This document shows, in pieces, positions 9,681 through 35,163 of a DNA stretch of 40,615 bases. The stretch is from Trueperaceae bacterium (GTDB lineage: Bacteria > Deinococcota > Deinococci > Deinococcales > Trueperaceae). Location: positions 53,253 through 93,867 of the forward strand of contig JBBDRK010000056.1 of NCBI GenBank assembly GCA_040905465.1. The letters are read 5' to 3'. The notes beneath the pieces are model-generated. The model was not told where the DNA came from and searched no databases. It was given only the letters and a program-made list of their open reading frames with translations. The position numbers and the translations under genes were made by a program. Every line of letters begins with the position of its first letter. Position 1 is the first letter of the stretch.

Positions 9681-9698
9681 GGCGAGCTAACCTGAGTC

Positions 9699-17017: not shown

Positions 17018-17109
17018 ACGCCAGCCTACCCAGTGGTCTCAGGGGCTCGAGGAAACCTGCTCCTGGGCGCAAGGCGCTACTGGAATGGCAACTGGTACTC
17101 CGCCCACGC

Positions 17110-17115
17110 TATACT
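17110..17115 (+). promoter_or_regulatory. -10 TATACT, leaderless promoter
   Basis: 7 nt upstream of ATG 17123; no SD. Confidence 0.6.
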
Positions 17116-17122
17116 CGCGCCG

Positions 17123-17485
17123 ATGAACCTGTTGCTCCGTTTAGCGCTCAACGCCGTGGCCCTCTGGGTGACAGCCGAACTGGCGCTGGGAATCAGCTTC
17201 TCTCGCTCCGGTCTCGGGCCGATCCTGCTGACCGCCCTGGTTCTCGGCCTCGTGAACACCATCGTGCGGCCGGTGATGATAATCCTGACCCTGCCGCTCA
17301 CTGTCGCCACCATGGGACTGTTCCTGCTGGTTGTCAACGGCATAGCCCTGTGGCTGGTGGCCACCATCACGCCACTCCAGGTTCACGGATTCGGCGGCGC
17401 CATCCTCGGCGCCCTGGTGCTCACCGTGATCAGCTGGGCCCTTGCCCGACTCTCGGGCGGTCGAAGCAAACGGCTCTGGGTTTAG
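17123..17485 (+). CDS. YvlD-like 4-TM membrane protein (phage holin family 4)
   Basis: ALVLGLVNTIVRPVMIILTLPLTVATMGLFLLVVNG...GFGGAILGALV. Confidence 0.9.
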   Translation: MNLLLRLALNAVALWVTAELALGISFSRSGLGPILLTALVLGLVNTIVRPVMIILTLPLTVATMGLFLLVVNGIALWLVATITPLQVHGFGGAILGALVLTVISWALARLSGGRSKRLWV

Positions 17486-17562
17486 CCGAGTTTTCGACTC
17501 GCCGGCGGTACTTCCAGTGGTGCAGGCGCGGGGGCAAGGCTTCGAAGTTAGCCGCCGGCAAT

Positions 17563-18159
17563 TCAGCCGCGCGGGAGGTACTTTTCCCAGATCGGATCGA
17601 TGTTCGGCAACAGGCCGTAGGCGGCGGAGAAGATGAAGCGCGGCGCCACCGGCTTGCGGTTGAGGTTCATCTTCGCCTCGTCCGGAGTACGGTCGCGCTT
17701 CTTGGCATTGCACTTCCGGCAACAGGCGACCACGTTGACCCAACTGGTCGGGCCGCCACGGCTGCGGGGCAGTACGTGATCCAGCGTCAGATCGTTCGAG
17801 TGGATGCCGCAGTACTGGCAGGCGTGGTCGTCCCGTCGGAAGACGTTCTTGCGGTTGAACGCGACTCTCTGACGGTGCGGCCTGCGAATGTAACGGCGCA
17901 GCCGGATGACGCTGGGAACCGGAAAGACGCTGGTGGGCGCACGCAGTACCTGGCCGCCGTCCTCGACCCGTTCCGCCGCATCATGCATGAGCAGCGAAAC
18001 CGCTCGCTTTACCGAACAGACGTGCAGCGGTTCGTATGAAGCATTGAGGATGAGCACCCGCGCCGCGTTGAGGTTGCGGATCGGCTGACCGACCGCGCCG
18101 GCCGGCGGGGTGGGCGTTATCCTGTTTTCCAGTTCCTTGCTGGCGGCGTCGACCTCCAA
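17563..18159 (-). CDS. HNH endonuclease (McrA-like, widespread housekeeping type)
   Basis: VLILNASYEPL, PSVIRL, RDDHACQYCG, LTLDHVLPRSRGG...NVVACCRKCNAKK; TATAAT at 18174-18179 (minus strand). Confidence 0.9.
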   Translation of the reverse strand: MEVDAASKELENRITPTPPAGAVGQPIRNLNAARVLILNASYEPLHVCSVKRAVSLLMHDAAERVEDGGQVLRAPTSVFPVPSVIRLRRYIRRPHRQRVAFNRKNVFRRDDHACQYCGIHSNDLTLDHVLPRSRGGPTSWVNVVACCRKCNAKKRDRTPDEAKMNLNRKPVAPRFIFSAAYGLLPNIDPIWEKYLPRG

Positions 18160-19304: not shown

Positions 19305-20108
19305 TTAGTCATCCCGCTGGTCAAGTTCACCGTGCGCCTGCCAAGCCGGCGCGCGCTTCTCGAGGAACGCCGCTACCCCTTCGCGCAGCTCCTCGCTGGA
19401 ACGGGCGCGTGCGTTGACGGTGGCGGCCAACTCGAGGGCCTCGGTCAGCGGCAGCCCCGACGTTCTCACGAGGAGCCGTTTGGTCTCCGAAACTGCCTCC
19501 GGCGCGTTTTCGGCCATGGACCGTGCCCGCTCCATGGCCCGCCCCAGCACCTCGCCGGCCGGGAGCGCTTCGCTTGCCAGGCCGCGAGCGACCGCCTCGC
19601 GAGCATCGATCAGCCGCGCCTCCAGCAGCAGCTCCCGGGTGACACGCTCACCGGCGAGCCGGGACAGGAACACGCTCACCAGGGCGGCAACGAATCCGAT
19701 TCGGACCTCGCTGTAACCGAGCCTGGCGCCTTCGCTCACCACCACGATGTCGCATAGCGAGGCGAGCCCCGCCCCTCCCGCCACTGCGTGGCCGTTTACC
19801 GCCGCCACCAGTGGTTTGGGAAACGCGAACACCCGCAGGAACAACTCGCCCAGCTCACGCGAGTCCGCCAGATGTTCTTCAAAACTGCCATTCAGGACGG
19901 AGCCGAGCTCGTCGAGGTCCATTCCGGCGCAAAAGGCGCTCCCACTGCCGGTCATAACTACCGCCCTCACCCGTCGGTCGCCGGCCGCTTCGTCGAGCGC
20001 CTCTGCCAGGCGCCGTCTCAGTTCCAGACTGAGCGCATTTCGTACCTCGGGCCTGTTGAGCGTGAGGACGCGGACAGCTCCATCGTCTTTGCTCAGGATG
20101 ACGGACAT
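19305..20108 (-). CDS. Enoyl-CoA hydratase/isomerase (methylglutaconyl-CoA hydratase-like)
   Basis: LTLNRPEVRNAL, AFCAGMDL, AAVNGHAVAGGAGL, EGVAAFLEKRAP; TACAAT 5 nt upstream (leaderless). Confidence 0.9.
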   Translation of the reverse strand: MSVILSKDDGAVRVLTLNRPEVRNALSLELRRRLAEALDEAAGDRRVRAVVMTGSGSAFCAGMDLDELGSVLNGSFEEHLADSRELGELFLRVFAFPKPLVAAVNGHAVAGGAGLASLCDIVVVSEGARLGYSEVRIGFVAALVSVFLSRLAGERVTRELLLEARLIDAREAVARGLASEALPAGEVLGRAMERARSMAENAPEAVSETKRLLVRTSGLPLTEALELAATVNARARSSEELREGVAAFLEKRAPAWQAHGELDQRDD

Positions 20109-20254
20109 GGCCGATTGTACCCATCGAAAAGCGCGTGCCGGGCGCGCCGGTTCGGCCCGTGACCCAACGCCAGTCCGACCGTTCGCGACGACTCGGCCGG
20201 CGTCAGTGCAGGACTGCGCAGCGCCGGCGGCGGGTGGAGGCATATAACCTCTCT

Positions 20255-21130
20255 ATGAAACGTTACCTGCTGCTCGTCCTGCCGTTACTGCTCGCCGCCT
20301 GCGCTCCCGGTGTCTCGTCCGTGATCGCTCCGCCTACCTTTCGCGTCGTGGAGTCGGAGACTGCCCTCGTGCGGCTGGAGCCGGCCGGCGTCGGCTCGGG
20401 CAGTGCACTGATCCATCTGGAGCTGGAAGCAGTCAACTCGAACCCGTTCGCCATGGAGCTCGCCGGTCTCGACGGCGACCTCTACCTGGGCGGCCAACGG
20501 GTGGCCGGCAGCACGTTCGAGGGCGGCCTCGTCCTCCCTTCCCGCGGCACCTCCAGGCTCGGACTCGACATCGAGGTACCGGTACAGGGAGCGCCGCAGC
20601 TCCTGTCCCAGCTTGCCCGGTTGGTCGCCGGCGATTCGGTGGCCTATCGCATGGACGCTACTGCCACAGTCAATGTGCTGGGCGCCCCCCAGCGCTTCCC
20701 GTCGCTGACCGTGGCGCAGGGCGACCTGCGTGCGCCTGGCGGCTTGCGCCCTCCCACGGTTCGCCTGGACCCCGCCGCCAGCGAGGTTCGCTTCAGCGGA
20801 CTCGGCGTCCAGGTGGACGTGGGGCTTGTCCTCGATAACCCGTTGCCGATCGGCTATTTCGTGCGAGGGCCGCAGTTGACCCTCCAGGTCGATGGCCGTT
20901 CGGTCGGTCGGGCCTCACTGCCACGGGTGCCGGTGCCGGCCGCGAGCTCATCGACGGCGTTGCTGCGCTTCGACCTGAGCCTTGCCGATGTAGGCGCTGC
21001 CATGATGGCCCGCCTTCGAGGTGGAACGAGCGGCCTGCGGCTGGCGCTGAGCGGCGAGCTGGCGCTGGAGATTCCGGGGATCGCGTCGCTCAGTCGGCCC
21101 TTGGGTGAGGTACGAGGCGTGCTGCCCTAA
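20255..21130 (+). CDS. Lipoprotein with tandem LEA_2/WHy domains
   Basis: Lipobox LAAC; two WHy-like repeats (LEAVNSNPFAMELAGLDGDLYLGG and LVLDNPLPIG...LQVDG). Confidence 0.8.
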   Translation: MKRYLLLVLPLLLAACAPGVSSVIAPPTFRVVESETALVRLEPAGVGSGSALIHLELEAVNSNPFAMELAGLDGDLYLGGQRVAGSTFEGGLVLPSRGTSRLGLDIEVPVQGAPQLLSQLARLVAGDSVAYRMDATATVNVLGAPQRFPSLTVAQGDLRAPGGLRPPTVRLDPAASEVRFSGLGVQVDVGLVLDNPLPIGYFVRGPQLTLQVDGRSVGRASLPRVPVPAASSSTALLRFDLSLADVGAAMMARLRGGTSGLRLALSGELALEIPGIASLSRPLGEVRGVLP

Positions 21131-21145: not shown

Positions 21146-23386
21146 TCAGTCGTGGCTCAGGCCGACGCGGTCGGCCAGCCGTGCCATCGGCCGTGGCAGC
21201 CACCAGTTCCAGCGGCCCGCCAGGAACATCATGGCGGGCACCAGCGCCAGACGCACCAGGGTGGCGTCGAGCAGCACCGCCAGCGCCAGCCCCAATCCAA
21301 GCGTCTTTATGAGCACGACTTCGGAGAAGATGAAACTGGAGAACACCACCAGCATTACCGCGGCCGCCGAGGTGATCACCCCGCCGGTCGCGCTGATAGC
21401 GGCCACCACGGCGTCGCGGTCCGAAAGCCCCTGGCGGTGCGCTTCGTAGATTCGGGCGACCAGGAACACCTCGTAATCCATCGACAACCCGAACACGATC
21501 GCGAAGATGAACAGCGGGGCGCTGGAGTCCACGTATCCCAGGCCACCCGGCACCCCGAACAGCCCCGCCAACCAGCCTTCCTGGAAGATCAGCGTGATCA
21601 CGCCGTAGGCGGTCGCCACCGTGAGAGTGTTGAGGAGAATCGACTTCAGGGGAATCAGCAGCGAGCGAAACGCCAGGCCCAACACCACGAGAATTCCCAG
21701 GTAGACCAGTGCCACCGCGTACGGGAACGACTTGTAGAGCAGCCTGGTCCACTCTGCTTCGAAGATGGTGGCTCCACCGACCAGCGCCTTCACTCCCACC
21801 TGATCGATCGCCTCGCTCACGCTGGCACGCAAAGCAGCAACCTGATGGGGAGCCAGATTGCCGAGCGGAAACACGCTGACCAGGGCGTAGCGGCCGCCCT
21901 CACTGACGGTAGTGGTCACCAGGTCTCTCAGTTCGCTGTTGAGGGCAACCTGCGGCGTGGCGTAGTACTGGTAGAGCATCAGCGTCGGCAGGTTTTCCAC
22001 CGCCATCGCCGAGTTGACGGCGCCCACCTCCGGGATCTCCTGCAGCAGGCGGCCAAGCCGGGACACACGCCGCTGACTCGACGGATTGTAGAAGCCGCCG
22101 TCACCGAAGTCGACCAGTATCTCGATCGGCTTCAGCAACCCCTCGAGCCCTACACCCTCCAGGGCCGCCACGACCTTGCGGGCGTCGGTAGCCGGGCTCA
22201 GTCCGCGCGCGCCGGGATCGGCAACCTGCATGCTCAGTGCCGGGATGCTCAGGACTACCAGCGCCCCTGCACCGGCCAGCGCCCAGGCCCACGGGTGGCG
22301 CAAGATTAGCAGCGCTCGCCGTCGCCAGAAGGAACGGCTGCGCAGGCCGGGTTCGCGGCGCGTGATCCTGACCGCGTTCACTCGGTGTCCCAGCAGTGCC
22401 AGCAGCGCCGGCAGCGCCGTGGTGCTCACCAGGATGCTGAGCCCCAGCACCACTATCGTGCCTACGCCCAACGAACGGATGAACGCCAGCGGCGGAACCA
22501 GCAGCGCCGACAGGGCGATCAGTACCGTGACTCCGCTGAAGGTGACGGCCTTGCCGGAAGTCCGGGCGGTAAGTTCGGCGGCCGCTTTCGGAGCGTGTCC
22601 GTTGCGCAGTTCTTCCCGGAAACGGTTCACCATCAGCAGGGCGTAATCTATGCCGGTCGCGAGGCCGAGCATCGTCACGATGCTCTGGGTGAAAACGGCG
22701 AACTGCATGAACTGGCCGAGGCCGTATAACGCCGCGAACGAGAGCGTTATCGACACCAGCGCCACCAGCAGCGGCAGGCCAGAAGCCACCAGCGCGCCGA
22801 AGGCGAACACCAGGACCACCAGCGACAGCGGCAGTCCGTAGAGCTCAGCGCGGCGAGTGTCCCGCTCGCTTATCTCCTCGAGCTCCCTCACCGAGGCCGG
22901 ACCACCGGCCAGGCTGAACGACAGGCTCGGCTCCTGTTCCACAGCGGTCCGTATGGCCTCGCTCGTTTCCTGCGCCTCGATCGCGGTATCGGCGCGAATG
23001 CCGACCAGAGACAGCAGGTAGCGTCCGTCGTCGCCCACCAGCTGCAGCCCACGTGAACGCCGATAGTCACGAACCCCGGTGACACCCGGGATGCCTTCCA
23101 CGGCAGCGACGGCTCGAAGGTAGGCCCGATCGAAGGCCGGTTCGCCCAAACGGGAATCGCTGCTTCGGCTAAGCAGGATCACGCTGTAGTCGTTGCTCTG
23201 CCGGAAGTCGTCGGCGAGGATTCGCCGCACCTGTTCGGGGACGCTCGACTCGGGTACGTTCGGTTGCGCGGTCAGGACTTCGCCGACTCGGGCCGCGAAT
23301 GGTACCGACGCCAGCACCACGACCACCCAGACTGCCAATACCAGACGGGGACGATGGCTGACGAGTTTGGCAAGTCGTGAAGGCAT
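21146..23386 (-). CDS. MMPL (RND superfamily) transporter
   Basis: MLGLATGIDYALLMVNRFREE, FGLSMDYEVFLVARIYE, DATLVRLALVPA...GRWNWWLP; alternative TTG start at 23404. Confidence 0.95.
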   Translation of the reverse strand: MPSRLAKLVSHRPRLVLAVWVVVVLASVPFAARVGEVLTAQPNVPESSVPEQVRRILADDFRQSNDYSVILLSRSSDSRLGEPAFDRAYLRAVAAVEGIPGVTGVRDYRRSRGLQLVGDDGRYLLSLVGIRADTAIEAQETSEAIRTAVEQEPSLSFSLAGGPASVRELEEISERDTRRAELYGLPLSLVVLVFAFGALVASGLPLLVALVSITLSFAALYGLGQFMQFAVFTQSIVTMLGLATGIDYALLMVNRFREELRNGHAPKAAAELTARTSGKAVTFSGVTVLIALSALLVPPLAFIRSLGVGTIVVLGLSILVSTTALPALLALLGHRVNAVRITRREPGLRSRSFWRRRALLILRHPWAWALAGAGALVVLSIPALSMQVADPGARGLSPATDARKVVAALEGVGLEGLLKPIEILVDFGDGGFYNPSSQRRVSRLGRLLQEIPEVGAVNSAMAVENLPTLMLYQYYATPQVALNSELRDLVTTTVSEGGRYALVSVFPLGNLAPHQVAALRASVSEAIDQVGVKALVGGATIFEAEWTRLLYKSFPYAVALVYLGILVVLGLAFRSLLIPLKSILLNTLTVATAYGVITLIFQEGWLAGLFGVPGGLGYVDSSAPLFIFAIVFGLSMDYEVFLVARIYEAHRQGLSDRDAVVAAISATGGVITSAAAVMLVVFSSFIFSEVVLIKTLGLGLALAVLLDATLVRLALVPAMMFLAGRWNWWLPRPMARLADRVGLSHD

Positions 23387-23431
23387 TTCCCGCCAGCTTA
23401 CCAACAGGCTCTGAGGGAGAGTGAGGGCGGG

Positions 23432-24172
23432 TTAGACGCCCACGAAGGTCTCGATCACCGACCGAGCGTGGGGATCGCGGGTGCCCACCGCTCCGGAGAG
23501 CCGGCCGTCTCGCAGGAACAAGATAGTATCGGCGTTCAGGGCGGCCTTCGGGTCGTGGGTGACCATCACTACCGTCCAGCCTCGGTCATCGACGCCGGCG
23601 CGCAGCAGGTTCAGAACCTCCTGGCCGGTCTCGCTGTCGAGGTTGCCGGTGGGTTCGTCGGCCAGGACGACGACCGGGTCGTTGATCAGGGCCCGGGCAA
23701 GTGAGACTCGCTGGCGCTGACCACCCGAGAGCTGCTTGGGCCGGTGGCCCAGCCGATCGGCGATGCCCAGGGCGTCTGCCAGTTCCCGCAACCGTGCCTC
23801 CCCGGCCGAGCGTCGGCCCGCCACTTCCGCCGGCAGCAGTATGTTCTCGCGCGCGTCGAGGTTCGGTATCAGCTCGAACGTCTGGAAGACGAAACCCAGC
23901 CGCTCGCGGCGCAGCCTGGTGAGTTCGTCGTCATCGAGCCCCTTGGTGGCTACGCCGCCGACGTAGACCTCGCCCTCGTCGGGCACGTCCAGAAGGCCGA
24001 GCAGATGCAGCAGCGTGCTCTTGCCGCTCCCGGACGGTCCCATCACGCTCACGAACGAGCCGGGCTCCACCGCCATGTCTATGCCGGAGAGCGCGGTTAT
24101 GGTCTGCTCGCCGAGTCGATAGGTCTTGCCGAGGCGTCGCGCCTCGATGGCGTAACGATTTTCTGATTCCAT
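23432..24172 (-). CDS. ABC transporter ATP-binding protein (LolD/MacB type)
   Basis: GPSGSGKST, LSGGQRQRV, LADEPTGNLD, VTHD. Confidence 0.96.
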   Translation of the reverse strand: MESENRYAIEARRLGKTYRLGEQTITALSGIDMAVEPGSFVSVMGPSGSGKSTLLHLLGLLDVPDEGEVYVGGVATKGLDDDELTRLRRERLGFVFQTFELIPNLDARENILLPAEVAGRRSAGEARLRELADALGIADRLGHRPKQLSGGQRQRVSLARALINDPVVVLADEPTGNLDSETGQEVLNLLRAGVDDRGWTVVMVTHDPKAALNADTILFLRDGRLSGAVGTRDPHARSVIETFVGV

Positions 24173-24175: not shown

Positions 24176-26740
24176 TTACTCCGAAGCGCCCAGCGCCAGG
24201 ATCGGCGGCAGCCGGGATGCCCGGCGGGCAGGGAAGTACGAGGCCAGCAGCCCCACCAGGGGAGATGCCACGAGCGCTGCGACGATTATGAGCCACGGAT
24301 AGCGTGGAGTGATGGCGAAACCTGTTATGGCGGCGGCGCCGGCAGTGATCACGTGGGCCAGCAGCAGCCCTGAGGCGATTCCCAGTATCGTTCCCACCAG
24401 CAGAACCACCAGGCCCTCGGCGATCACCACCCTGCCGACTCCCGCGCGGGTCAGACCGAAGGTGCGCAGGACGGCGAGCTCGTGCTTTCGGTTCGAGAGG
24501 TTCATGCCGAGCGTGTTGGCGACTCCCAGAGCGGCGATGAAGATCGCCAGTGCCAGCAGCGCGTTGGTGGTAACGAACGAACGCCGGGTGAGCGCCATTA
24601 TCGCTTCGCGGTACTCCCGGTTGAGGGTGACGTCGAGGTAGAGCCCGGGAAACGCCTCCAGCAGGCGGTCGCGTGCCAGGGCGACGTCGGCGTCCGGATC
24701 GACCGTCATGACGTACAGGTCCGGGGTTCCGCCGCCGAACAGCTCCAAGTCTTCGATCGACGCTATCACCGCCTCGCCACCGCCGGTAAAGTCCACGATC
24801 ACGCCACCCACCTCGAATTCGCGAAAGCCCTCGTCGGTGCGCAACTCGACCCGGTCGCCCTGTCCGAGATCGAAGCGGTCGCGCAAGGTGTTGGCGATCA
24901 GCACCTCACCGCCGGCGGTCAGTGAGCGGTAGCCCTCCTCGTCGTTGCCGTGTCCGGGGATGTACTGAAAACGCCCGAACCCTGAGTCCGGCGCGAAACG
25001 GGCGGGGTCGACCAACACCAGGGCGATGCTGCGAGCCCGGGCATCGCCGGCCGGCTGAAAACGGACGATCCGGATGCCTACCCCCGATACCGCGTCGACG
25101 CCGGGCACGACCTCGGGGACCGCTGTCTCGAAGTCGGCGGGGAAGCTCACCGGTGAGGTGACGAAGAGGTCGCCCACGATGGTCGTATCTACCCAGTCCG
25201 CGATGGCCTGATTGATGCCGGCCACCATTGCGCCAACACCGATGGTGAGTCCCATCCCGACGACCACGGAACCGATTGCTACGCCGTTTCGCGCAGCGTT
25301 GCGGCGCGCGAACGACGCGCCCAGCCGGCCGGCAGGCCCCATCGTCCTCGTCAGCACCGGTCCGAGCAAAAGCACCGCCGGCGCGAGCAGCGTGGGCGTG
25401 GCAAGGGTGAATCCCAGGAAGAGCAGAGCCATCGCAATGCCTGCCGCGGCCAACGCCCAGGCCCCGCTCCAGGGCAGCAACGCCATGGTTACGCCGGCAG
25501 CGACAGCCAGCCAACCCGCCAGGCTCCGCAGCCAACTGCCGTCCGTGTCCTCCGCTTGGCGCAACGCCGCCAACGGCGGCGTTGATGACGCCGTCCGGGC
25601 CGGCAGGGACCCGGCCAGCAGCGCAACCAGCACGCCCACGCCGGCCGCCGGGAGCACGCTTTCGAGTGGCAGCACCAGTGTCCGGAACTCGATGCCGAGA
25701 CTGTAGGCGTTGATTCGGGTGATGGTGTAGGCCAGTACGATGCCCAGCAGGAGGCCGGCCACGACGCCGAGCACGCTCACTATCGCCGCCTCTAGGAGAG
25801 CCAGCCGCCGCACCTGCTGCTTGGTCAGGCACAGCGTTCGCAGGAGCGCGTACTCGCGACGCCTCTCCACCACGGCGGCCATGAAGGTGTTGTAGGCCAT
25901 GAAACCGCCGAGGGCCAGCAGCGTGGCTGCCAGGATGCTCAGCCCCGACTGGATGGTGTCGACTATGCCGGTTGCGATATTGCCGCTCGCGGCAGGGAAG
26001 GTAACGGTGTACTCGTCTCCCAGCCGGTCGCCCAACCGCGTTCGTGCCGCGCTCGCGTCGGCAGCGTCGTCCAGGTGCAACTCGAGGAAGCTGGCGCGTC
26101 CCTCGAGGTGAAGCACCGACTGCAGGTCCGCGAGCGCCATGACGGCCACCCTTCCACCGTTGGTCGAGGCGTAACCGTATGAGTCGTCGAGCAAGCCTGT
26201 CACGCGGAGCTCGAAGCTGCCCAGCTGCCCGGCGAAGCCCACTGTCTGCCCGACCTCGATTCCGCGCTGGGCGGCGAAGTTCTCGGCGATCGCCACTCCC
26301 TGGCTGCCCGCTTGGGGAAGCGATCCAGTGGCCGTCCTCACCGGCAGGTCGACACCCGCGCTGGTGATGCGGCCGGATATCTGGAAGCCGGTGTCGAGGC
26401 CCGGGATCACCGAACGGTCGATGTCCAGGCGATCTCGAATCGGCTCGGCTCGGGTGTTGAGGACCGGGTAAGTCCGCTCCACGACCGGGTCGCTTTCCAG
26501 CTCGTCGCTCACCTGTGCGTAGGCGAATACCGCCCGCCCCTCCACGCCGGGGGTCACCAGCAGGTCGGCGGTGCCGGCCGCGGCGGCCAGGGTGCTGGCA
26601 ACGTTGGCCTCGACGTTGTCACCCACCGACAAGGTCGCCAGAACGGCAGCGATTCCGATCGCCACCCCCAGAACGGTCGCCGCGGTACGCCAGGCGTGAC
26701 GAAGTAGATTGCGCAGCGCCAGCCGCACCAGCATCGGCAT
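24176..26740 (-). CDS. ABC transporter permease with duplicated MacB_PCD/FtsX domains
   Basis: LALRNLLRHAWRTAATVLGVAIG, NTFMAAVVERRREYALLR, NTLGMN...ELAVLRTFG, PARRASRLPP. Confidence 0.92.
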   Translation of the reverse strand: MPMLVRLALRNLLRHAWRTAATVLGVAIGIAAVLATLSVGDNVEANVASTLAAAAGTADLLVTPGVEGRAVFAYAQVSDELESDPVVERTYPVLNTRAEPIRDRLDIDRSVIPGLDTGFQISGRITSAGVDLPVRTATGSLPQAGSQGVAIAENFAAQRGIEVGQTVGFAGQLGSFELRVTGLLDDSYGYASTNGGRVAVMALADLQSVLHLEGRASFLELHLDDAADASAARTRLGDRLGDEYTVTFPAASGNIATGIVDTIQSGLSILAATLLALGGFMAYNTFMAAVVERRREYALLRTLCLTKQQVRRLALLEAAIVSVLGVVAGLLLGIVLAYTITRINAYSLGIEFRTLVLPLESVLPAAGVGVLVALLAGSLPARTASSTPPLAALRQAEDTDGSWLRSLAGWLAVAAGVTMALLPWSGAWALAAAGIAMALLFLGFTLATPTLLAPAVLLLGPVLTRTMGPAGRLGASFARRNAARNGVAIGSVVVGMGLTIGVGAMVAGINQAIADWVDTTIVGDLFVTSPVSFPADFETAVPEVVPGVDAVSGVGIRIVRFQPAGDARARSIALVLVDPARFAPDSGFGRFQYIPGHGNDEEGYRSLTAGGEVLIANTLRDRFDLGQGDRVELRTDEGFREFEVGGVIVDFTGGGEAVIASIEDLELFGGGTPDLYVMTVDPDADVALARDRLLEAFPGLYLDVTLNREYREAIMALTRRSFVTTNALLALAIFIAALGVANTLGMNLSNRKHELAVLRTFGLTRAGVGRVVIAEGLVVLLVGTILGIASGLLLAHVITAGAAAITGFAITPRYPWLIIVAALVASPLVGLLASYFPARRASRLPPILALGASE

Positions 26741-26771: not shown

Positions 26772-27776
26772 CTAGTCGTTTTCCCTCACGGCAGCCGGGT
26801 TGCGGCCCGTCGCCAGTGCCAGGCCCCCTATGAGAGGACCGACCAGGAAGTAGATGTAGTGCTGGTATAGCCGCCACAGGATTACGGCCGCGGCGAGCGA
26901 TCGCCCGCCTACATGACCCTTGAGGGCGTAGGTTATGGCCGCCTCCTGGTAGCCGCTTGCGCCGGGTGTGGGGACCACGAAGGCAAACGCGTGCAGGACC
27001 ACCTGTGCCGCGTATACCACCAGGTGTTCGGCGCTCACCAGCAACCCCACCAGGACCAGGTTCAGCACCGCGAAGTAGGGGAGGCGGGCGCCGCTCGAGA
27101 GCAGGTGGAAGCGCACGTGCCAGTGCCACGGCCGCCGGGAGTACCGCTCCCCGGCCAGTGCCAGGTCGCGCAGGAACGGGTCGATCCTGCCGTGGAAGCG
27201 TTGCAGGAGCGGAAGAGCGGAAAGTCGTCGAAGCAGGCTGATCGCCATCGGAAGGCGGAACACCAACAGATAGCTGACCACCAGCGCCAGTGCCGACAGC
27301 AAGGCGACCAGCAGACCGAACTGCTCCAGGGGCACGGTTATGCGGGCCAGGCGCAGCGCCAGGTAGCCCGTCGGCGCCGCCCAACCGAAGAAGGCCAGGT
27401 CGCCGACCAGGCACATCACGGCAACCGACACGGCGCGGTCGGTGGGGAGCCCGAAGCGGTTGAGGAGGAATACGATCCCGATCGAGTTGCCGCCGCCGGC
27501 CGGCGTCGCCACCGCGCTGAACGTCCCGAGCACGTGGGTCTGGATGCCTTGCCAGAGACTCGTCGGATGACTCGTACCGCGCGTGAGAAAGACGATCCGC
27601 CAACCGGACAGCAGCCACCACAGCAGCATCGGCACCGCGATGCCGGCCAGCGACAGGGCGTCGAGGCGACGAATCACGCCGAGTGCGTCGGCGGCCAGGC
27701 CGTCCGGTGCCACCAGGTAGATGCTGGTGACCCCCAGCACGAGTGATACTACGAACGCAACGAGCAGGCGGGTCAC
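26772..27776 (-). CDS. Lysylphosphatidylglycerol-synthase TM / UPF0104 flippase-like membrane protein
   Basis: GWRIVFL, TFSAVATPAGGG, VPTPGASGYQE, ILWRLYQHY; GTG overlaps the upstream TGA. Confidence 0.85.
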   Translation of the reverse strand: MTRLLVAFVVSLVLGVTSIYLVAPDGLAADALGVIRRLDALSLAGIAVPMLLWWLLSGWRIVFLTRGTSHPTSLWQGIQTHVLGTFSAVATPAGGGNSIGIVFLLNRFGLPTDRAVSVAVMCLVGDLAFFGWAAPTGYLALRLARITVPLEQFGLLVALLSALALVVSYLLVFRLPMAISLLRRLSALPLLQRFHGRIDPFLRDLALAGERYSRRPWHWHVRFHLLSSGARLPYFAVLNLVLVGLLVSAEHLVVYAAQVVLHAFAFVVPTPGASGYQEAAITYALKGHVGGRSLAAAVILWRLYQHYIYFLVGPLIGGLALATGRNPAAVREND

Positions 27777-28990
27777 TTGGCTCCGGTCAACGGTTCGAGG
27801 CCGGGGCCGCAGGCGTCTTCCGCCGGCTGCCCTGTTCGAGCGTAGTGACCGAGGTAGCGTCCCAGCCGGGCCGCCATTCCCGGGAAGTCCAGGCGGACGG
27901 CGGCGAGGCGCACTCGCTCCAGCCGATCGGGGTCGCTCCGGTAGTTGCACACCTCGCGCCGCAGTTCGGCCGGCGTCAGTACCAGCCGTCCCAGTCCGTG
28001 TCGCTCGAGCAGCCCGATCATCTTGTTCTCCGCGGTGCCGAATCGCATCGGAGCAAGCAGCGGCCGGCCCACCGCGAGGGTCTCGTACACGGTTGCCGGG
28101 CCGCTTTTTCCGATCACGACATCACAGGCCGCCACGTAATCGGCCAACTCCTCCACGAAGCCGAGTACACGCAGATTGGGGAGGCGCTCCTCGAATCCGG
28201 CCAGGCGCCGGCGTAACGCCTCGTTGCGGCCCGTCACGACCACAACCTGAGTCGTCGGGTCGTCGCTCAGTGCTTCCAGCACCGCCTCCGGTGTCCCCCC
28301 GACCCCCTCTCCTCCCAAGGTCACCAGGCAGGTAAAGGCCTCGTCCAGTGCCAGGCGCCGCCTTGCCTCGGTCTTGCCGGGTGCGCACAGGAACTGCTGC
28401 CGAACCGGATAGCCGACCACGTCGATACGTGATCCCGGAACGCCGAAGCGCATCAGTCTGCGCCTGGAGACCGGCGACGCCACCACGAACCGCTCGGCCA
28501 GCGGTTCCGCCCACAGCGCGTTGGCGTTCAGAGTCGAGGTTTCGAAGGTGAGGACCGGGGCTTCCAGGCCGAACTGCCGCTGCGCGAGTGTCATGGCCAC
28601 CGTAAGCCAGCCGTGGTTTACGACCACCAGCGCCGGGCGGGTCTCGTTGAGCTCCTGAGCCGCCCGCTCCGCGAAGTCGTGCAGCAGGCGCCGGTGGAAC
28701 GCCGCCGTCGCGGCAGGCAGGGCGTCGATCAGCCGCTGGCCCCAGACTATGGTCCAGGGGTGGCGCAACGCGCGCCGCCATCCCTCTTTATGACGCCGGT
28801 CGAGCTCATCGAAGCCGAAGTCGACCATCGGCTCCGTCACCCTAGTGTCGAAGGTTACCGGGTAGGCCTGCTCGAGCGCCTGACTCATCGCCTCGGCCGT
28901 GCTGACGTGCGACCCTCCGGCCGCTATCGTGGCAAAGAGTACCGAGCCCTGACGGGCAGTGGTCGGCAACGGCGAGAAGTCGATTTCCAT
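27773..28990 (-). CDS. GT28 MGDG-synthase/UgtP-like glycosyltransferase (paralog 2)
   Basis: ATIAAGGSHVSTA, GYPVR, VVTGRN, LGFVEELADYVAACDVVIGKSGPATVYE. Confidence 0.9.
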   Translation of the reverse strand: MEIDFSPLPTTARQGSVLFATIAAGGSHVSTAEAMSQALEQAYPVTFDTRVTEPMVDFGFDELDRRHKEGWRRALRHPWTIVWGQRLIDALPAATAAFHRRLLHDFAERAAQELNETRPALVVVNHGWLTVAMTLAQRQFGLEAPVLTFETSTLNANALWAEPLAERFVVASPVSRRRLMRFGVPGSRIDVVGYPVRQQFLCAPGKTEARRRLALDEAFTCLVTLGGEGVGGTPEAVLEALSDDPTTQVVVVTGRNEALRRRLAGFEERLPNLRVLGFVEELADYVAACDVVIGKSGPATVYETLAVGRPLLAPMRFGTAENKMIGLLERHGLGRLVLTPAELRREVCNYRSDPDRLERVRLAAVRLDFPGMAARLGRYLGHYARTGQPAEDACGPGLEPLTGAK

Positions 28991-29021: not shown

Positions 29022-30191
29022 TCAGTGCAGGCCCTCGGTGATGAAACTTCGTTCGGGTCTGCCGCCTCGCGCGTAACTGGCGATGTAGCGTGCCAGTCGC
29101 TCGCTCATGCCCGGAAGGTCGAGTCCAGCGGCGGCGGTGGCCACCTGCTCGAGTCGGTCCGGGTCGCGGCGGTACCGGTCGACCTCCTGCCTTATGGCCT
29201 CCGGCGAGCGCACCAGCGCCCCGAGACGCCGCCGGACCAGGAAGCGTACGACCTCCAGTTCGTTCAGCCCGGCATATCCGGTAGCGATGAACGGTCGGCC
29301 GACCGCCAGCGTCTCGAAGACCGATGCCGGCCCGGCCTTTCCGACCACCACATCGGCGGCGGCCAGGAAAGTAGCCACCCGATCGGTGAATGCCTCGAGG
29401 CGCAGACTCGCCCAACGCTCGGCCAACGGGGCGAGACTGCGCCGGAGAACGGGGTTTCGCCCGGTCAGCACGACCAGCTGAAGGCCATCCTCGAGGAGGC
29501 CCCTTACCCAGGGGCGGGGGTCTTCGCCGACAGCCTCCCCGCCGAGCGAGACCAGGCAGTGAAAACCCGCGCCCAGGCCAAGCTCACTCCGGGCCCACTC
29601 CTTGGTTGGAGCATGGAGGAAGTCGTCCCGCACCGGATAGCCGATGACATCGACCTTTTCAGGTCGTACGCCCAGCCGCACCAGATCCGATTTGGCGGCG
29701 GCCGATGGAACTACGAACTGCTCGGCCGCGGGTTCGGCCCATAGCGCGCTGGCGTCGAGCGGCTCGGTGGCGAACGAGAGGACCGGCGTTCTCAGCGCGT
29801 GCCGTTGCTGTGCCCTGGTAAGCCCGACGGTGAGCCAACCGTGGTTCGCCACTATCAGGTCGACCGGCCTGGCTCGCAGCTCGTCGGCGGCAGCACGGGA
29901 GAAACGGCGCAGCATGAGGCGGTGGTAGCGCCGTGTCAGGGTAGGAGCCGCGTCGAGAATCCTCTGCCCGGTGCGAACGAGCTGCGGGCGGGCCAGCGCC
30001 CAGCGCCACAGCTCCTTGTGCTGTCGGTCTTCGCGAAGCAGCCCGAGGTCGAACATGAAGTCCGATACTCGTGTCTCGAACTCGCCCGGCAGATGCCGGG
30101 CGAGAGCCTCCGCCATGGCAAGCGCGGTCGCGACGTGGCCTCCACCGGCTGCGATGGTGGCGAACAGGACTCGTCTCGGCGCCGGCGTCAC
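29022..30191 (-). CDS. GT28 MGDG-synthase/UgtP-like glycosyltransferase (paralog 1)
   Basis: ATIAAGGGHVATA, GYPVR, VLTGRN, AADVVVGKAGPASVFE. Confidence 0.9.
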   Translation of the reverse strand: MTPAPRRVLFATIAAGGGHVATALAMAEALARHLPGEFETRVSDFMFDLGLLREDRQHKELWRWALARPQLVRTGQRILDAAPTLTRRYHRLMLRRFSRAAADELRARPVDLIVANHGWLTVGLTRAQQRHALRTPVLSFATEPLDASALWAEPAAEQFVVPSAAAKSDLVRLGVRPEKVDVIGYPVRDDFLHAPTKEWARSELGLGAGFHCLVSLGGEAVGEDPRPWVRGLLEDGLQLVVLTGRNPVLRRSLAPLAERWASLRLEAFTDRVATFLAAADVVVGKAGPASVFETLAVGRPFIATGYAGLNELEVVRFLVRRRLGALVRSPEAIRQEVDRYRRDPDRLEQVATAAAGLDLPGMSERLARYIASYARGGRPERSFITEGLH

Positions 30192-31198
30192 GATACTCGG
30201 GCCTCCCCATCGGGCCGCAGGAGCGGGTCCTGGGACACGGTGACCGCCATTCCGGCACGCCAGGAGAGCTCGGGCCGGTAGCCGAGATGGCGTTCCGCTG
30301 CGATGAGCGAAAAGTGCACGTCGCGCAGCATGAGCGTCGCCCGGTAACGTGTGAGAGGCGGTTCAGCTTTCGGGGCGAATGTTCGCCATAACGCCTCCAC
30401 GCCGGTGGCCACGGGTAGCACCAGCTCCCCGGGTAGGCGTAATCGCGGGGGCCGGGCGCCGATCAGCCGGGCGAACTCGGCCAGCGCTTCACGCCAGGTA
30501 GGTGCTCCGTCGTCGGCGATCACAAACACCCTGCCACCTTGTTTCGGTGTGACGGCGGCCAGTTCCAGACCCAGCGTCAGATTGCCCACGTAGGCGGTAT
30601 TCAGCACCCGGCCACCGTCTCCCAGCAACGGCAGCCGCCCACCCTTCAAGGCGGCTGCAACACGGCGCGTCTGGGGATCTCGCGGCCCGAACGGCCAAAG
30701 CCCGGGCCTGACCACCACGCCCTCACCGGGCCAGGCAAGGACCAGGTCCTCGGCGGCGATCTTCGACCGAGCGTACGGCATCGTCCCGTTGTCGCGCGGT
30801 AGCCTCTCGGGATCGGCGTTGCGAAAACCGCGGAACCTGTGAACGGCAACGCTCGAGACCAGCACGAAACGGCGGGTGCCGGATGCCGTTGCCGCGTCGA
30901 GCAAGTTGCGGGTGCCGCCGGCATTGGTTTCCATGAGCGGTTGCGGAGGTCCCCAGTCTGCAAGCCGGGCTGCCGAGTGAATCACCGCGTCTACGTCGTC
31001 GCAGATGCCCCGCAGGCTTTCGGGATCGGTAATGTCGGCCCTGACTATCTCGGCGTTCGGGTGCGTCTGGACCGTCCGCAGGTTGCCGATCACCCCCCAC
31101 GGGCTCACCAGTGCGCGAACCGCGTGGCCGCCCGCAAGCAGCCGCTCGCAAAGGTGACTGCCGATGAATCCGTGAGCGCCGCTGACCAGGATCCTCAT
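30188..31198 (-). CDS. Extended SDR, NAD(P)-dependent epimerase/3-beta-HSD-like; candidate 3-keto-sphingoid/ceramide reductase
   Basis: SGAHGFIG, VSS, YARSK (YxxxK), FGPRD; role inferred from context. Confidence 0.85.
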   Translation of the reverse strand: MRILVSGAHGFIGSHLCERLLAGGHAVRALVSPWGVIGNLRTVQTHPNAEIVRADITDPESLRGICDDVDAVIHSAARLADWGPPQPLMETNAGGTRNLLDAATASGTRRFVLVSSVAVHRFRGFRNADPERLPRDNGTMPYARSKIAAEDLVLAWPGEGVVVRPGLWPFGPRDPQTRRVAAALKGGRLPLLGDGGRVLNTAYVGNLTLGLELAAVTPKQGGRVFVIADDGAPTWREALAEFARLIGARPPRLRLPGELVLPVATGVEALWRTFAPKAEPPLTRYRATLMLRDVHFSLIAAERHLGYRPELSWRAGMAVTVSQDPLLRPDGEARVS

Positions 31199-31908
31199 GT
31201 TCGAACCAGGATGAACAGGTCGGTCACCAGACCGAGCGCCAGGTGAATGGCCACGACGTAGTACAACGAACGGGTTCGCAGGGCAACCAGACCGAAAAGA
31301 AGTCCGGCCGGGAACGCCGCCACGGTTTCCACCAGCGGTTTCCCCAGGTGCAGCAAGGTGGAAGCCAACGTCTGAATCCAGAGCGCCCCGTAGCGCCCGA
31401 ACGTCGGCTGCAGTCCACGGAGGAGGAACCCCCGGAAGAAGAACTCGTACGACAGGTAGTAGAGCGAGTAGATGACCGCCCAGGAGGCGAACGCCAGGAT
31501 GCCGCTACCTGCCCAGGCGCCGGGCCACGGGTAGGCGAGTCGGATCGCTGGGTCGCCCGAGGCGAACCAGCCGAGGGGAATCACCAGCAGCAAGCCCAGC
31601 AACAGCGCCTGCCGTCCCGCCGCCGGGTCCCCTCGGCGCAGGCCCAGGCGCTTCGGTAGCAGGCCGAGCGGTCGCGCCAGCAGGAGTGGCAACAGGCCGA
31701 GCAACAGCACGGCCCACAGGACCGAACGCAGGGCGTGCGCAGGGTCGCGCGGCGTCGCCGGACCGGGCGCCCCGAAGTACCAGTAGGCGATCTGCAGCAG
31801 CAAGGCCACTGCCAGCAAGGCGGAGCCGCTGCTCTTCGGCGGGAACATCCCGGCCAGATCCGTCGCCAGTCCGGTGAGAAGTCCCGGTGCCCGTGACTCT
31901 TGCCTCAC
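31195..31908 (-). CDS. CPBP (CAAX/Abi) intramembrane glutamic endopeptidase-like protein
   Basis: YEFFFRGFL, TLLHLGKP...E, AIHLALG; GTG overlaps the upstream TGA. Confidence 0.85.
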   Translation of the reverse strand: MRQESRAPGLLTGLATDLAGMFPPKSSGSALLAVALLLQIAYWYFGAPGPATPRDPAHALRSVLWAVLLLGLLPLLLARPLGLLPKRLGLRRGDPAAGRQALLLGLLLVIPLGWFASGDPAIRLAYPWPGAWAGSGILAFASWAVIYSLYYLSYEFFFRGFLLRGLQPTFGRYGALWIQTLASTLLHLGKPLVETVAAFPAGLLFGLVALRTRSLYYVVAIHLALGLVTDLFILVRT

Positions 31909-33014
31909 ATCGTCTTCTGATATAGCCGGTAGGTCTTGTAGAGCCGCCCGCCCGACGCCTCGATGCCACGAATCATTGCGTTGTTGGTCTCCAGTACCCA
32001 GGAACACTCGCCTTGCCGCAGGCCGCGCCTGGCACCGCGTTTGGCGATCTCGTCTATTAGCACCAGCTCCAGCCCGCGATTCCGGTACTCCGGCATGACG
32101 CCGAGAATAGGCAATCGGGCACGGTCTATCAGCCGGTTGCGGTTCAGCAGTTTCAGGATACCGAACGGCAGCAGGCGCCCGCGAAGTCCCAAGAGCACCT
32201 GGTTCACGTCTGGAACGGCGATGGCTATCGCCGCAATGTCCCCATCGATTTCGAGGAAGAGCGCCAGCTCCGGATCGAGGATCAGTTTCAATTCGTCGAC
32301 CAGATGATCGAACTCGGCATCTGTGTACTTCACGAAACCCCAGTTCCGCTCCCACGCCTCGTTGTACACCCGTTTTAGAATTCCCGCCTCCCGCTGCAGA
32401 CGCTTCATGTTTACCGGCCTGACCTCCAGCCGCTCGCGGCGCCTGACACGGTCGGCGAGCCGGCTGAGACGCTCGCTCGGACCCTGTTCGACGTTGAAGT
32501 GCCAGGCGTAGAGGTCCATGGCCTTGCCGTAGCCGGCCGATTCGACGAACGCAGGATATTCGGACGGATTCTGCGGCATCATCAGGTACGGCACCGTGTC
32601 GAAGGCGTCGATCTGAAAACCGGAGCCGTCGTTCATCGAAGGATTGGCGGGACCCCTGACGACATCCCGACCCAGTTGCCTGGCGCGCCCCTCCACCGTC
32701 GCCAGCAGTTCGTTGGCGACAGTCTGGTCCTCGGCTTCGAAGAATCCGAAGAACAGGAGGTTGTCGCCGTGGGTTCGGTTGTGGTTGTCGTCATCTATCG
32801 CCGCGATCCTGCCAACGAGTCGGCCCTCCCGGTAGGCGAGATAAAGGTCGATACGTGCGTGATGGAAAAACGGGTTGCGCTTGGGATCGAACTTCTCCCA
32901 CTCCGAAATCAGGAGGGGCGGGACCCACAGCGGGTCGGCCCGGTACTTCCGGTATGGATACTCGATGAAGCGGCGCAGATCACGCCGGCCGGTTACGTTC
33001 TCGATCCGAATCAT
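31905..33014 (-). CDS. GNAT N-acyltransferase, bacterial ceramide synthase (bCerS)/YghO-like
   Basis: FIEYPYRKYRADPLWVPPL...KRNPFF...GRIAAI...FFGFFE...GPANPS...YNEAWERNWGF...PDVNQ...GVMPEYRNRG...SWVLETN...YKTYRLY; immediately downstream of spt. Confidence 0.82.
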   Translation of the reverse strand: MIRIENVTGRRDLRRFIEYPYRKYRADPLWVPPLLISEWEKFDPKRNPFFHHARIDLYLAYREGRLVGRIAAIDDDNHNRTHGDNLLFFGFFEAEDQTVANELLATVEGRARQLGRDVVRGPANPSMNDGSGFQIDAFDTVPYLMMPQNPSEYPAFVESAGYGKAMDLYAWHFNVEQGPSERLSRLADRVRRRERLEVRPVNMKRLQREAGILKRVYNEAWERNWGFVKYTDAEFDHLVDELKLILDPELALFLEIDGDIAAIAIAVPDVNQVLLGLRGRLLPFGILKLLNRNRLIDRARLPILGVMPEYRNRGLELVLIDEIAKRGARRGLRQGECSWVLETNNAMIRGIEASGGRLYKTYRLYQKTM

Positions 33015-33052
33015 GCCGTCGGTCGTAACCGCAGGGATGGGAAACTGAGCAT
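33011..33052 (-). CDS. 13-aa uORF (MLSFPSLRLRPTA) translationally coupled to the bCerS-like gene
   Basis: SD GAGGAG (33060-33065) 7 nt before ATG; its TGA overlaps the bCerS ATG (ATGA). Confidence 0.5.
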   Translation of the reverse strand: MLSFPSLRLRPTA

Positions 33053-33109
33053 GGGGGCTCTCCTCGCACTCTCCGGCAGGGCGGCGCAGTTGTCACCCCG
33101 CCAGGAGGC

Positions 33110-34384
33110 CTAGCCGATTATGTCGAAGCGCCTTCCCACCACCTCGAAGGCGGCGAGCAGCGCATCGAGCTGCTCTATCGTGTGATTAGCGTTTACGCTC
33201 GTGCGAATTATCGCCTGACCGCTCGGTACCCCCGGCGGGAGCGCGGGCGTGGTGAAGATCCCTTCCTCCCACAGCCCTTTCCAGAAGAGCATGGTCAGGT
33301 CGTCGGGCCCAATGAGGACCGGCACGATGGGGGTCTCGGAACCGAGTGTGTCGAATCCCAGCGAGCGCAGTCCGCCGTGAAGACGTTCGACGTTGCGCCA
33401 CAACTTTATGCGGTGTTCGGGCTCATTCTCGATGATCTCGAGAGCCTTCAGAGCGGCAGCCATCTGCATCGCCGGCAGTGCAGCGGTAAAGATGAACGGG
33501 CGCGCCTTGTGCTTGACGTAGTTGACCACCTGACGAGGGCCCGCCAGGAAGCCGCCCACCGAGCCGAACGACTTAGAGAACGTTCCGACTATCAGGTCGA
33601 TCTGATCGTCGAGACCAAAATACTCCGCGCTGCCGCGACCGCTCGCGCCGAGGACTCCGGTGGCGTGGGCGTCGTCGACGATTACCCGGGCGCCGAAACG
33701 GCGCGCGATCTTCACGATTTCCGGCAGGCGAGCAACGTGCCCGCTCATCGAAAAGACCCCGTCGGTGACGATCAGCCGGCCCCCGGGCCGATCGCTGTCT
33801 TTGGCCAAAAGCCGTTCGAGGTGCGCCAGATCGTTGTGCTCGTACTTGCGCAGGGTTCCGAACGCAAGCCGGGCACCGTCGTAGAGGCACGCATGGTTCT
33901 CACGGTCGAAATAGAGGATGTCGTGTCGCCCGGTGAGCGCGCTGATGACCGAAAGGCAGCCCAGGTAACCGGCGCTGAACGTCAAAGCGGCTTCCTTGCG
34001 AAGGAATGAAGCCAGCCGTTCTTCGAGCAGTTCGTGGAGCGTAAGCGTTCCGGTAAGGAATCTCGAGCCGGTGCAACTGGTGCCGAAGTCGTCGAGCGCG
34101 TTCCTGGCCGCCTCTTTCAAGCGCTGATCCTGAGTGAGACCCAGGTAGTCGTTGGAACCGGTGATGACCATGTCCCTGCCGTTGACCGTGACGGTGCCGC
34201 CGTGCTGCCTCGCTATCGGCTTGAAATACGGGTGCATCCCCGCTGCGACCGCCTCGTCCGCCCGAGTGAAGGCGAATGCCTTGTCGAACACGTCGGTCAC
34301 CCGGCTGGACGGAGAGTCGAGCACCCCGGTGCTGCTCTCGAGACGATTCTGGTGCTTCTGAGTGGGGTTGGATTGTTCGGACAA
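33110..34384 (-). CDS. spt: Serine palmitoyltransferase-like alpha-oxoamine synthase
   Basis: HPYFKPI, GSNDYLGLT, GTSCTGSRFLTGTL, DRENHAC, DGVFSMSG, DDAH, PLP-lysine motif GTFSKSFG; SD GGAGG before TTG. Confidence 0.83.
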   Translation of the reverse strand: MSEQSNPTQKHQNRLESSTGVLDSPSSRVTDVFDKAFAFTRADEAVAAGMHPYFKPIARQHGGTVTVNGRDMVITGSNDYLGLTQDQRLKEAARNALDDFGTSCTGSRFLTGTLTLHELLEERLASFLRKEAALTFSAGYLGCLSVISALTGRHDILYFDRENHACLYDGARLAFGTLRKYEHNDLAHLERLLAKDSDRPGGRLIVTDGVFSMSGHVARLPEIVKIARRFGARVIVDDAHATGVLGASGRGSAEYFGLDDQIDLIVGTFSKSFGSVGGFLAGPRQVVNYVKHKARPFIFTAALPAMQMAAALKALEIIENEPEHRIKLWRNVERLHGGLRSLGFDTLGSETPIVPVLIGPDDLTMLFWKGLWEEGIFTTPALPPGVPSGQAIIRTSVNANHTIEQLDALLAAFEVVGRRFDIIG

Positions 34385-34605: not shown

Positions 34606-35163
34606 GTGAGCACTCAACGTGATGGGGGTGAGGGCGCCCAGCTGACGTCGCTTGGCGCGGCCACGCGTCCCGCCGACGTACGTGACGCCCCCCTGGTACA
34701 TGCCATCTACCTGGAGACTCCGGGTTACTTCGACATCATTTCGATACCGGTTCCCACTTTGGCCGAGGTCGAGACCGAGTTACAGACGGCCGGCCGCGAC
34801 GCGCGGCGCCAGGTCGAACTCGTGTTCGCGCCGGCCGATCTGCCGCTCGCCGGCTGGCACCTCCGTGACCCGCATCAGGGGCGGCCGGTAGTCGGCTACC
34901 TGGACTACAAACTGGACTATCCGGAGGCCGGCGACGCCACCGTCAATCTTATGCTGGTACATGGTGGCCTTCAGAGCAAGGGCGTCGGTAAGTCGTGCGC
35001 AGCCGATCTGGAGGTTCGGCTGAGGCAAAGGGGTACGGTCCGGCGGGTACTGGCCAGCATTTATGGGCAGAATCCGCGCGCGGAACGGTTCTGGCGATCG
35101 CTGGGCTACAGATTCGCCATCGACGCCAAGCCGATTCTGGACTGGTACGCCAAGGAGCTCTGA
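34606..35163 (+). CDS. GNAT family acetyltransferase
   Basis: VNLMLVHGGLQSKGVGK...NPRAERFWRSLGY. Confidence 0.85.
   Translation: MSTQRDGGEGAQLTSLGAATRPADVRDAPLVHAIYLETPGYFDIISIPVPTLAEVETELQTAGRDARRQVELVFAPADLPLAGWHLRDPHQGRPVVGYLDYKLDYPEAGDATVNLMLVHGGLQSKGVGKSCAADLEVRLRQRGTVRRVLASIYGQNPRAERFWRSLGYRFAIDAKPILDWYAKEL

Follow-up and report, generated by a model that had tools for sequence, protein, structure and literature searches.

The stretch of DNA analysed here, referred to as the window, comprises 40,615 nucleotides of contig JBBDRK010000056.1 (positions 53,253 to 93,867, forward strand) of a Trueperaceae bacterium from the Deinococcota (assembly GCA_040905465.1, 3.53 Mb, 95% complete). Window positions 31905-34384 contain exactly two open reading frames (ORFs), both on the minus strand. 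The leading one (33110..34384, -) encodes a Spt-like alpha-oxoamine synthase (AOS) of 424 residues that matches Pfam Aminotran_1_2 with an E-value of 7e-59 and that scores best against solved and curated serine palmitoyltransferases (Spt). It is followed, 95 bases downstream, by the gene for a tandem-GNAT N-acyltransferase of the YghO/CerS (bCerS) family (31905..33014, -; 369 residues; 35% identity to E. coli YghO). The AOS starts with a TTG codon preceded by GGAGGG. The pair stands at the head of a series of ten minus-strand genes, the ends of which, beyond the pair itself, overlap or lie at most about 30 bases apart. We consider it likely that the pair encodes the Spt and CerS/bCerS steps of a bacterial ceramide pathway, the product of which is probably a ceramide-type backbone that is glycosylated and exported. 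The original prediction, made from the letters of the window, had based the same pair assignment on short motifs. These are indeed present in the translations, HPYF, GSNDYLGL, GSRFLTGT and GTFSKS in the AOS, and WVPPL, NPFF, GRIAA, FGFFE, NWGF and SWVLETN in the GNAT protein.

The ranking of solved structures, the top NCBIfam model and the phylogenetic tree all place the AOS nearer to Spt than to BioF or Kbl, as had been proposed. The best match among solved structures is the Spt of Sphingobacterium multivorum (PDB 3a2b, 8guh) with 365 bits, followed by Thermus BioF/Kbl with 292 bits, Sphingomonas Spt with 271 bits, cysteate-C-fatty acyltransferase with 258 bits, Kbl with 243 bits and BioF with 204 bits. 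The remaining non-Spt relatives score 180 and 120 bits, the classes compared being BioF, Kbl, ALAS, CqsA and cysteate acyltransferase. Among NCBIfam models, the Spt model of CFB type (NF047600) ranks first with 430.8 bits, ahead of beta-proteobacterial Spt (381.9), the BioF/Kbl subfamily (379.8), BioF (379.3) and Kbl (356.5). The AOS stays below the curated cut-off of every one of these models, which is 426.45 for BioF and 460 for Kbl. The AOS shares 39% identity with E. coli Spt, an enzyme that has been assayed as serine palmitoyltransferase and forms 3-oxo-sphinganine (PMC9386255). In a tree of 33 AOS sequences calculated with IQ-TREE, a clade with 96/92 support unites the window AOS with E. 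coli Spt and with 18 of the 19 AOS from other phyla that are adjacent to a GNAT, and also takes in three Deinococcota AOS whose GNAT partner lies elsewhere in the genome. E. coli BioF, E. coli Kbl and seven Deinococcota AOS of other type stay outside; four of these seven come from families f2, f4 and f5, which lack the GNAT, and three are second copies from genomes of the window's own family (f1). The single GNAT-adjacent AOS outside the clade is an odd row (L056).

Within the tree, the AOS of Trueperaceae, of family f3 and of Rubrobacteraceae form one clade with 100/100 support, which points to gene transfer between the two phyla at some time. Metagenome-assembled genomes (MAGs) labelled Acidobacteriota (L266-L269, L271, L273, L275, L276) carry AOS that are 54-59% identical to the window AOS and nearer to it than the AOS of most other phyla. 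Either a further transfer of this clade or mislabelled bins would account for them.

Residue roles were taken from the S. multivorum Spt (PMC10196870) and transferred to the window AOS by alignment. The catalytic set N78, H164, S212, D237, H240, T268, S270, K271 and R394 is intact. As in the S. multivorum enzyme, the contacts to pyridoxal phosphate (PLP) and to the carboxylate are kept, with Asn52, Gly80-Ser81, His138, Ser185, Asp210, His213, Thr241, Ser243, Lys244 and Ala274 corresponding to N78, G106-S107, H164, S212, D237, H240, T268, S270, K271 and A301, respectively. Phe83, Ala212 and Phe272 correspond to F109, A239 and F299, and the Gly-Ser-x-Phe loop is Spt-like. Ser81 and Ala274 of Spt are replaced by Ala82 and Lys280 in the cysteate enzyme (PMC13692747), the numbering offset between the two enzymes being our own deduction; at these positions the window AOS has the Spt residues Ser107 and Ala301. 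It differs from S. multivorum Spt in Tyr140 for Phe114, in Ile298 for Met271 and in an N-terminus longer by about 30 residues. Serine would be the most likely substrate of the AOS.

The GNAT protein can be aligned with E. coli K-12 YghO from end to end, with 35% identity in 374 aligned columns and an E-value of 2e-74. The motifs on which the bCerS/YghO label had been based are common to YghO. An alignment of 32 sequences shows them on columns that are invariant or nearly so (G68, R69, F89, G90, W225, E336, W339, L341, E342, N344), and they are therefore not due to chance. PMC9386255 lists 'aca: CC_1154, yghO ECD_02850' as the N-acyltransferase gene needed for dihydroceramide, and CC_1154 is named cerS in PMC11324152. 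From the identity to YghO and this joint listing of yghO and CC_1154, we conclude that the bCerS/YghO assignment, as read from sequence, is right at the family level. The Pfam match is weak (Acetyltransf_1, 24.1 bits), the profile search yielded no matching NCBIfam model, the sequence search found no solved structure and the ESM Atlas search returned generic GNAT cluster names only. An AlphaFold model calculated with the 32 sequences reaches a mean pLDDT of 90.2. Its fold matches are tandem GNATs that N-acylate amines, namely MAB_4324, a clavulanate tandem GNAT, glucosamine N-acetyltransferase and mycothiol synthase (MshD), with E-values down to 1e-14 and TM values of 0.55-0.70; no solved bCerS is among them.

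The genomic surroundings of yghO in E. coli differ between strains. In strain R12 (L180), yghO stands divergently beside genes for a fatty acyl-AMP ligase, a short-chain dehydrogenase/reductase (SDR) of the NAD-dependent epimerase family, an acyl carrier protein (ACP) as well as spt (PGAP name), and a second lptG and lptF follow the cluster. This neighbourhood matches the aasR-cerR-acpR-spt-cerS set of Caulobacter. In K-12 (L179), yghO is directly followed by an IS5 element and then by yghQ (L179 11044-13341 versus L180 10999-16596), so that K-12 is without the rest of the cluster. A search for yghO DNA in 5426 complete E. coli genomes detected it in 4549.

The GNAT family is large, with at least 596 stretches in contigs taken as one genome per species. 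Of 160 GNAT loci from many phyla, 123 have an AOS at a distance of no more than 300 bp, and five more have one within 10 kb. In the other 32, the available flank contains no AOS; in 11 of these it spans less than 1300 bp on one side. The same contig is counted twice for at least six of the 160 loci. For the distribution within the Deinococcota, 364 genomes were analysed, with a threshold of E <= 1e-20 for the GNAT and of at least 57% identity for the Spt-type AOS, the latter counted by hand. These counts include one unpublished genome (G357), and related genomes are not independent samples. In the window's own family, the GNAT is found in 104 of 127 genomes and the Spt-type AOS in 98 of 127. 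Both genes occur in 19 of 19 (GNAT) and 18 of 19 (AOS) genomes of f3 and in the single genome of f6. The three sister families f2 (0/125), f4 (0/23) and f5 (0/68) contain the GNAT in none of their 216 genomes and have no Spt-type AOS, their top AOS being at most 45% identical to the window AOS.

Within the window's own family, about three quarters of the genomes (97 of 127, hand count) contain both genes. Two have the GNAT only (G359, G391), one has the AOS only and there at a contig end (G308), and 27 have neither; in five of the latter (G327, G353-G356), the GNAT is represented by a distant paralogue only (32-37% identity). The pair is unlinked yet co-occurs in f3 and in one genus of the window's family (G297-G299). 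Many relatives have a second, Kbl/BioF-like AOS besides the Spt-type enzyme. MAGs labelled Trueperaceae contain the nearest named relatives of the window genes, a GNAT of 77% and an AOS of 87% identity. Among the best 80 GNAT and the best 80 AOS records there is no cultured carrier from the Deinococcota or Rubrobacteria, these being MAGs throughout; the only cultured carriers among those records are more distant Conexibacter strains, which have a divergent version of the pair. One genome of the family (G369:C8:2890-3981) contains a GNAT match with ten in-frame stops, possibly a decaying copy, together with an intact Spt-type AOS on another contig.

The absence of partners for other AOS roles had been claimed for the neighbourhood of the pair. 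It holds for the 35 ORFs of the window, among which Pfam detects no bio genes, threonine dehydrogenase (Tdh), cysteate synthase or ACP, and it extends to the genome as a whole. A tblastn search with E. coli BioB and BioD as queries gave no match in the whole genome, and neither Tdh (best 240.9 bits versus 458) nor cysteate synthase (best 77.6 bits versus 324.9) exceeds its cut-off there. The partners for the BioF, Kbl and sulfonolipid roles are therefore removed. The window AOS is the only alpha-oxoamine synthase in its genome. The pair has no dedicated ACP, as the original prediction had stated: a single PP-binding/ACP gene is present in the genome, on contig C43 and not on that of the window. 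E. coli AcpR has no match in the genome, and E. coli AasR finds weak general ligases on other contigs only, with no AasR-like neighbour of the pair. The Spt subgroup of Bacteroidetes and delta-proteobacteria is distinct from the proteobacterial subgroup that needs AcpR and AasR (PMC9386255). A single ACP without an AasR-like neighbour fits the former.

The eight genes downstream of the pair include ones predicted for the addition of sugars and for export. A CPBP/Rce1-like intramembrane protease family protein is encoded directly after the GNAT (31195..31908, -; Pfam Rce1-like, 7e-12). Its start, a GTG at 31908 with an ATG at 31848 as alternative, overlaps the stop of the GNAT gene, and its own stop overlaps the start of the following gene. 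A CPBP gene follows the GNAT in nine Trueperaceae loci (L002-L004, L007, L023, L027, L030, L031, L059) and does not do so in Rubrobacteraceae. The next gene codes for an extended SDR of HpnA/OleD-like type (30188..31198, -; Pfam Epimerase, 5e-28). A window-type SDR likewise stands after the CPBP gene in Trueperaceae loci. Among NCBIfam models, OleD (2-alkyl-3-oxoalkanoate reductase) ranks first for the window SDR with 140 bits, followed by HpnA with 127 bits, and neither comes near its cut-off. The E. coli CerR-like protein (ECD_02852), to which the SDR is 28% identical (E 3e-14), also scores best on HpnA and OleD. The Rossmann motif of the SDR starts at residue 7, and there is no obvious signal peptide. 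This protein is a candidate 3-keto reductase with the role of CerR, or alternatively a nucleotide-sugar epimerase.

Two GT28/MGDG-synthase-like lipid glycosyltransferases follow as tandem paralogues, the first at 29022..30191 (-; Pfam Glyco_tran_28_C and MGDG_synth) and the second at 27773..28990 (-; Pfam), which is 50% identical to the first (E 8e-123). Their nearest solved relatives are plant MGD1 and a processive diacylglycerol glucosyltransferase, which the first paralogue matches with 60.9 and 52.7 bits, respectively. Each of these enzymes has a lipid hydroxyl as its target. The stop of the second glycosyltransferase overlaps the GTG start, at 27776, of a gene for an LPG_synthase_TM membrane protein that resembles the flippase domain of MprF (26772..27776, -; PF03706, 3.6e-17). 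The run is completed by a MacB/FtsX-type double permease (24176..26740, -; Pfam FtsX and MacB_PCD, twice each), an ABC transporter ATPase (23432..24172, -; Pfam ABC_tran, 2.7e-30) and an MMPL/RND-type lipid transporter (21146..23404, -; Pfam MMPL, 1e-81). The MacB/FtsX permease is kept after the cluster in four other loci (L003, L004, L005, L007). A Rubrobacteraceae chromosome (L019) has the AOS, the GNAT, an SDR, one glycosyltransferase and LPG_synthase_TM in a row, and a five-gene core of Spt, GNAT, SDR, glycosyltransferase and LPG_synthase_TM is therefore common to two phyla.

From the family assignments, the linkage of the genes, their co-occurrence and the missing rival partners we infer the following route, including its substrates, the order of its steps, the glycosylation of ceramide rather than diacylglycerol, and export. 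In the first step, the PLP enzyme would form a 3-keto long-chain base out of a long-chain acyl thioester and an amino acid, for which L-serine is the most likely candidate. With no dedicated ACP or acyl-ACP synthetase in the genome, the thioester is probably acyl-CoA or housekeeping acyl-ACP. The tandem GNAT would then N-acylate the 3-keto base; acylation ahead of reduction is the order proposed for Caulobacter (PMC11087976). Reduction of the 3-keto group is probably the task of the co-transcribed SDR and would take place in the cytoplasm, given a Rossmann motif from residue 7 on. One or two hexoses are then probably attached by the pair of MGDG-synthase-like glycosyltransferases, and the flippase-like protein, the MacB/ABC pump and the MMPL protein probably carry the lipid outward.

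Several observations weigh against this reading. For all carriers of the cluster, the lipids are so far predictions. To our knowledge, no enzyme assay of YghO has been published. The GNAT is tied to Caulobacter CC_1154/CCNA_01212 by way of E. coli YghO and a figure legend in PMC9386255. The AOS misses all Spt equivalog cut-offs (NF047600, 430.8 of 640; NF047599, 381.9 of 500; NF047603, 299.8 of 670), the last model exceeding its own cut-off in none of 14 control genomes, Caulobacter included, and the branch of E. coli Spt in the AOS tree is long. In the active site, Asn117 of S. multivorum is Cys143 in the window AOS. The rows of Trueperaceae, f3 and Rubrobacteraceae carry C, S, V or M at this position, and outside that clade it is Asn in all aligned AOS except for a Gly in one Gemmatimonadota row (L039). 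Ser140 is replaced by Cys166, like in the cysteate enzyme. The two exchanges leave room for a non-serine substrate, and Spt can also use Ala and Gly (PMC10196870). The pair would then make an N-acylated long-chain amino lipid instead of a canonical ceramide, with 1-deoxy-type bases from Ala or Gly, or a sulfonolipid from cysteate. We regard this as doubtful. At Asn78, Gly106-Ser107, Phe109 and Ala301, the window AOS agrees with the serine enzyme and departs from the cysteate enzyme with its Ala82 and Lys280. For cysteate in particular, the acyltransferase reaches 258 bits compared to 365 bits for Spt, and the genome has no cysteate synthase above cut-off. The downstream lipid glycosyltransferases fit a hydroxylated head, as had been argued for serine from the C1 hydroxyl that they would need. 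This argument is not airtight, since a C3 hydroxyl is also present after reduction. A still further-reaching proposal is that the Trueperaceae/Rubrobacteraceae Spt clade without the active-site Asn uses a non-serine amino acid and supplies an undescribed class of glycosylated N-acyl long-chain amino-alcohol lipids, exported by MacB and MMPL. This too appears rather improbable; if true, the uncharacterised glycolipids of these lineages, which tolerate radiation and desiccation, would include such a lipid. A link to long-chain 1,2-diols, which have been reported in Truepera, was considered and dropped because AOS chemistry yields amino ketones and not diols.

That the AOS is simply the BioF or Kbl of the cell and stands beside the GNAT incidentally could be suspected from its being the only AOS of the genome, from BioF and Kbl scores (379 and 356 bits) not far under those of Spt, and from Thermus BioF/Kbl as second-best solved match. 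We consider this highly unlikely. The genome is without BioB and BioD and has no Tdh above cut-off, the BioF and Kbl cut-offs are unmet as well, and the tree parts the AOS from BioF, Kbl and the Thermus/Deinococcus-type AOS. Moreover, adjacency to the GNAT is kept across phyla, and many relatives own a second, Kbl/BioF-like copy in addition to the Spt-type AOS.

More weight has to be given to an explanation in which a ceramide-type backbone is made and the remainder of the run serves another end: glycoglycerolipids or some different product of the envelope would be handled by the glycosyltransferases, the flippase-like protein and the pumps, with the SDR working as an epimerase of sugar nucleotides. 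Diacylglycerol is a conceivable acceptor for the glycosyltransferases, being that of their nearest solved relatives, and the SDR also matches sugar epimerase and dehydratase families. The window SDR is not the reciprocal best match of E. coli CerR, since a paralogue on contig C72 scores higher (77.8 versus 60 bits). The GNAT-adjacent SDRs of Rubrobacteraceae and most other phyla resemble E. coli CerR (80-139 bits) more than the window SDR. The role of the window SDR as 3-keto reductase is therefore deduced from its position. In one locus (L005), the pair is followed directly by LPG_synthase_TM, MacB and ABC genes, with neither SDR nor glycosyltransferase. Against this stand the start/stop overlaps or short gaps that run through all ten genes and the order of Spt, GNAT, SDR, glycosyltransferase and LPG_synthase_TM, which recurs in Rubrobacteraceae, in another phylum. 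We judge such a mere co-location to be unlikely, and favour one operon for the synthesis, glycosylation and export of a ceramide-type lipid.

The bacterial ceramide pathway of Caulobacter, composed of Spt, CerS and CerR, was reportedly described by Stankeviciute et al. in 2022. The genes for Spt, CerS/bCerS (CC_1154 = CCNA_01212) and CerR (CC_1164) are described as clustered in Caulobacter crescentus and E. coli B (PMC9386255, PMC11324152, PMC11087976). The window shares with this pathway a Spt-like AOS beside a YghO-family GNAT and an epimerase-family SDR in the same operon. Unlike in these organisms, the operon is without dedicated AcpR and AasR, the AOS is nearer to the Bacteroidetes-type than to the proteobacterial Spt, the head-group genes are of GT28 type and transport would rely on MacB/ABC and MMPL, not on LptF2/LptG2. 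The window SDR is also no clear orthologue of the periplasmic CerR of Caulobacter (PMC11087976) and has no obvious signal peptide. Homology searches extended Spt-bCerS-CerR clusters from 9 to 40 phyla (PMC11334938). These predicted clusters have the same core pair and often an adjacent SDR; the window cluster adds two MGDG-synthase-like glycosyltransferases, a CPBP protein and pumps, and its host belongs to the Trueperaceae (Deinococcota). The string 'deinococc' does not occur in the main text of PMC11334938. Among the top-ranked matches of the literature searches, no publication was found on sphingolipids or on Spt in Trueperaceae, Truepera, Deinococcota or Rubrobacter.

The core chemistry is already known. 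The head-group and export genes are a variant, by which a known pathway would be extended to a group of bacteria for which the literature searches gave no such lipids, and this variant is worth lipid analysis. If the assignment is true, ceramide-type lipids, probably glycosylated, would be expected in about three quarters of the sampled Trueperaceae genomes, in a sister family and in Rubrobacteraceae. The operon gives candidates for the flippases and transporters of bacterial sphingolipids, which are open points in PMC11087976, and puts forward a GT28-type enzyme for the possible role of ceramide glycosyltransferase.

Some features of the window lie apart from these assignments. One promoter-like site was detected, not above the number in shuffled sequences (mean 1.1), and 13 terminator-like sites compare to a mean of 7.0 after shuffling, none of them placed with confidence. 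Five ORFs of 211, 435, 315, 304 and 400 residues, at 6493-10613 (+) and 16837-18039 (+), match no Pfam family at E <= 0.001. A small ordinary GNAT acetyltransferase of 185 residues (34606-35163, +) is encoded divergently from the AOS. Further genes related to lipids or the envelope are found around the run, namely Asp23 with a FakA-like fatty acid kinase (4078-6304, +), an enoyl-CoA hydratase (19305-20243, -) and a LEA_2 protein (20135-21130, +), the gene of which sits directly downstream of the MMPL gene.

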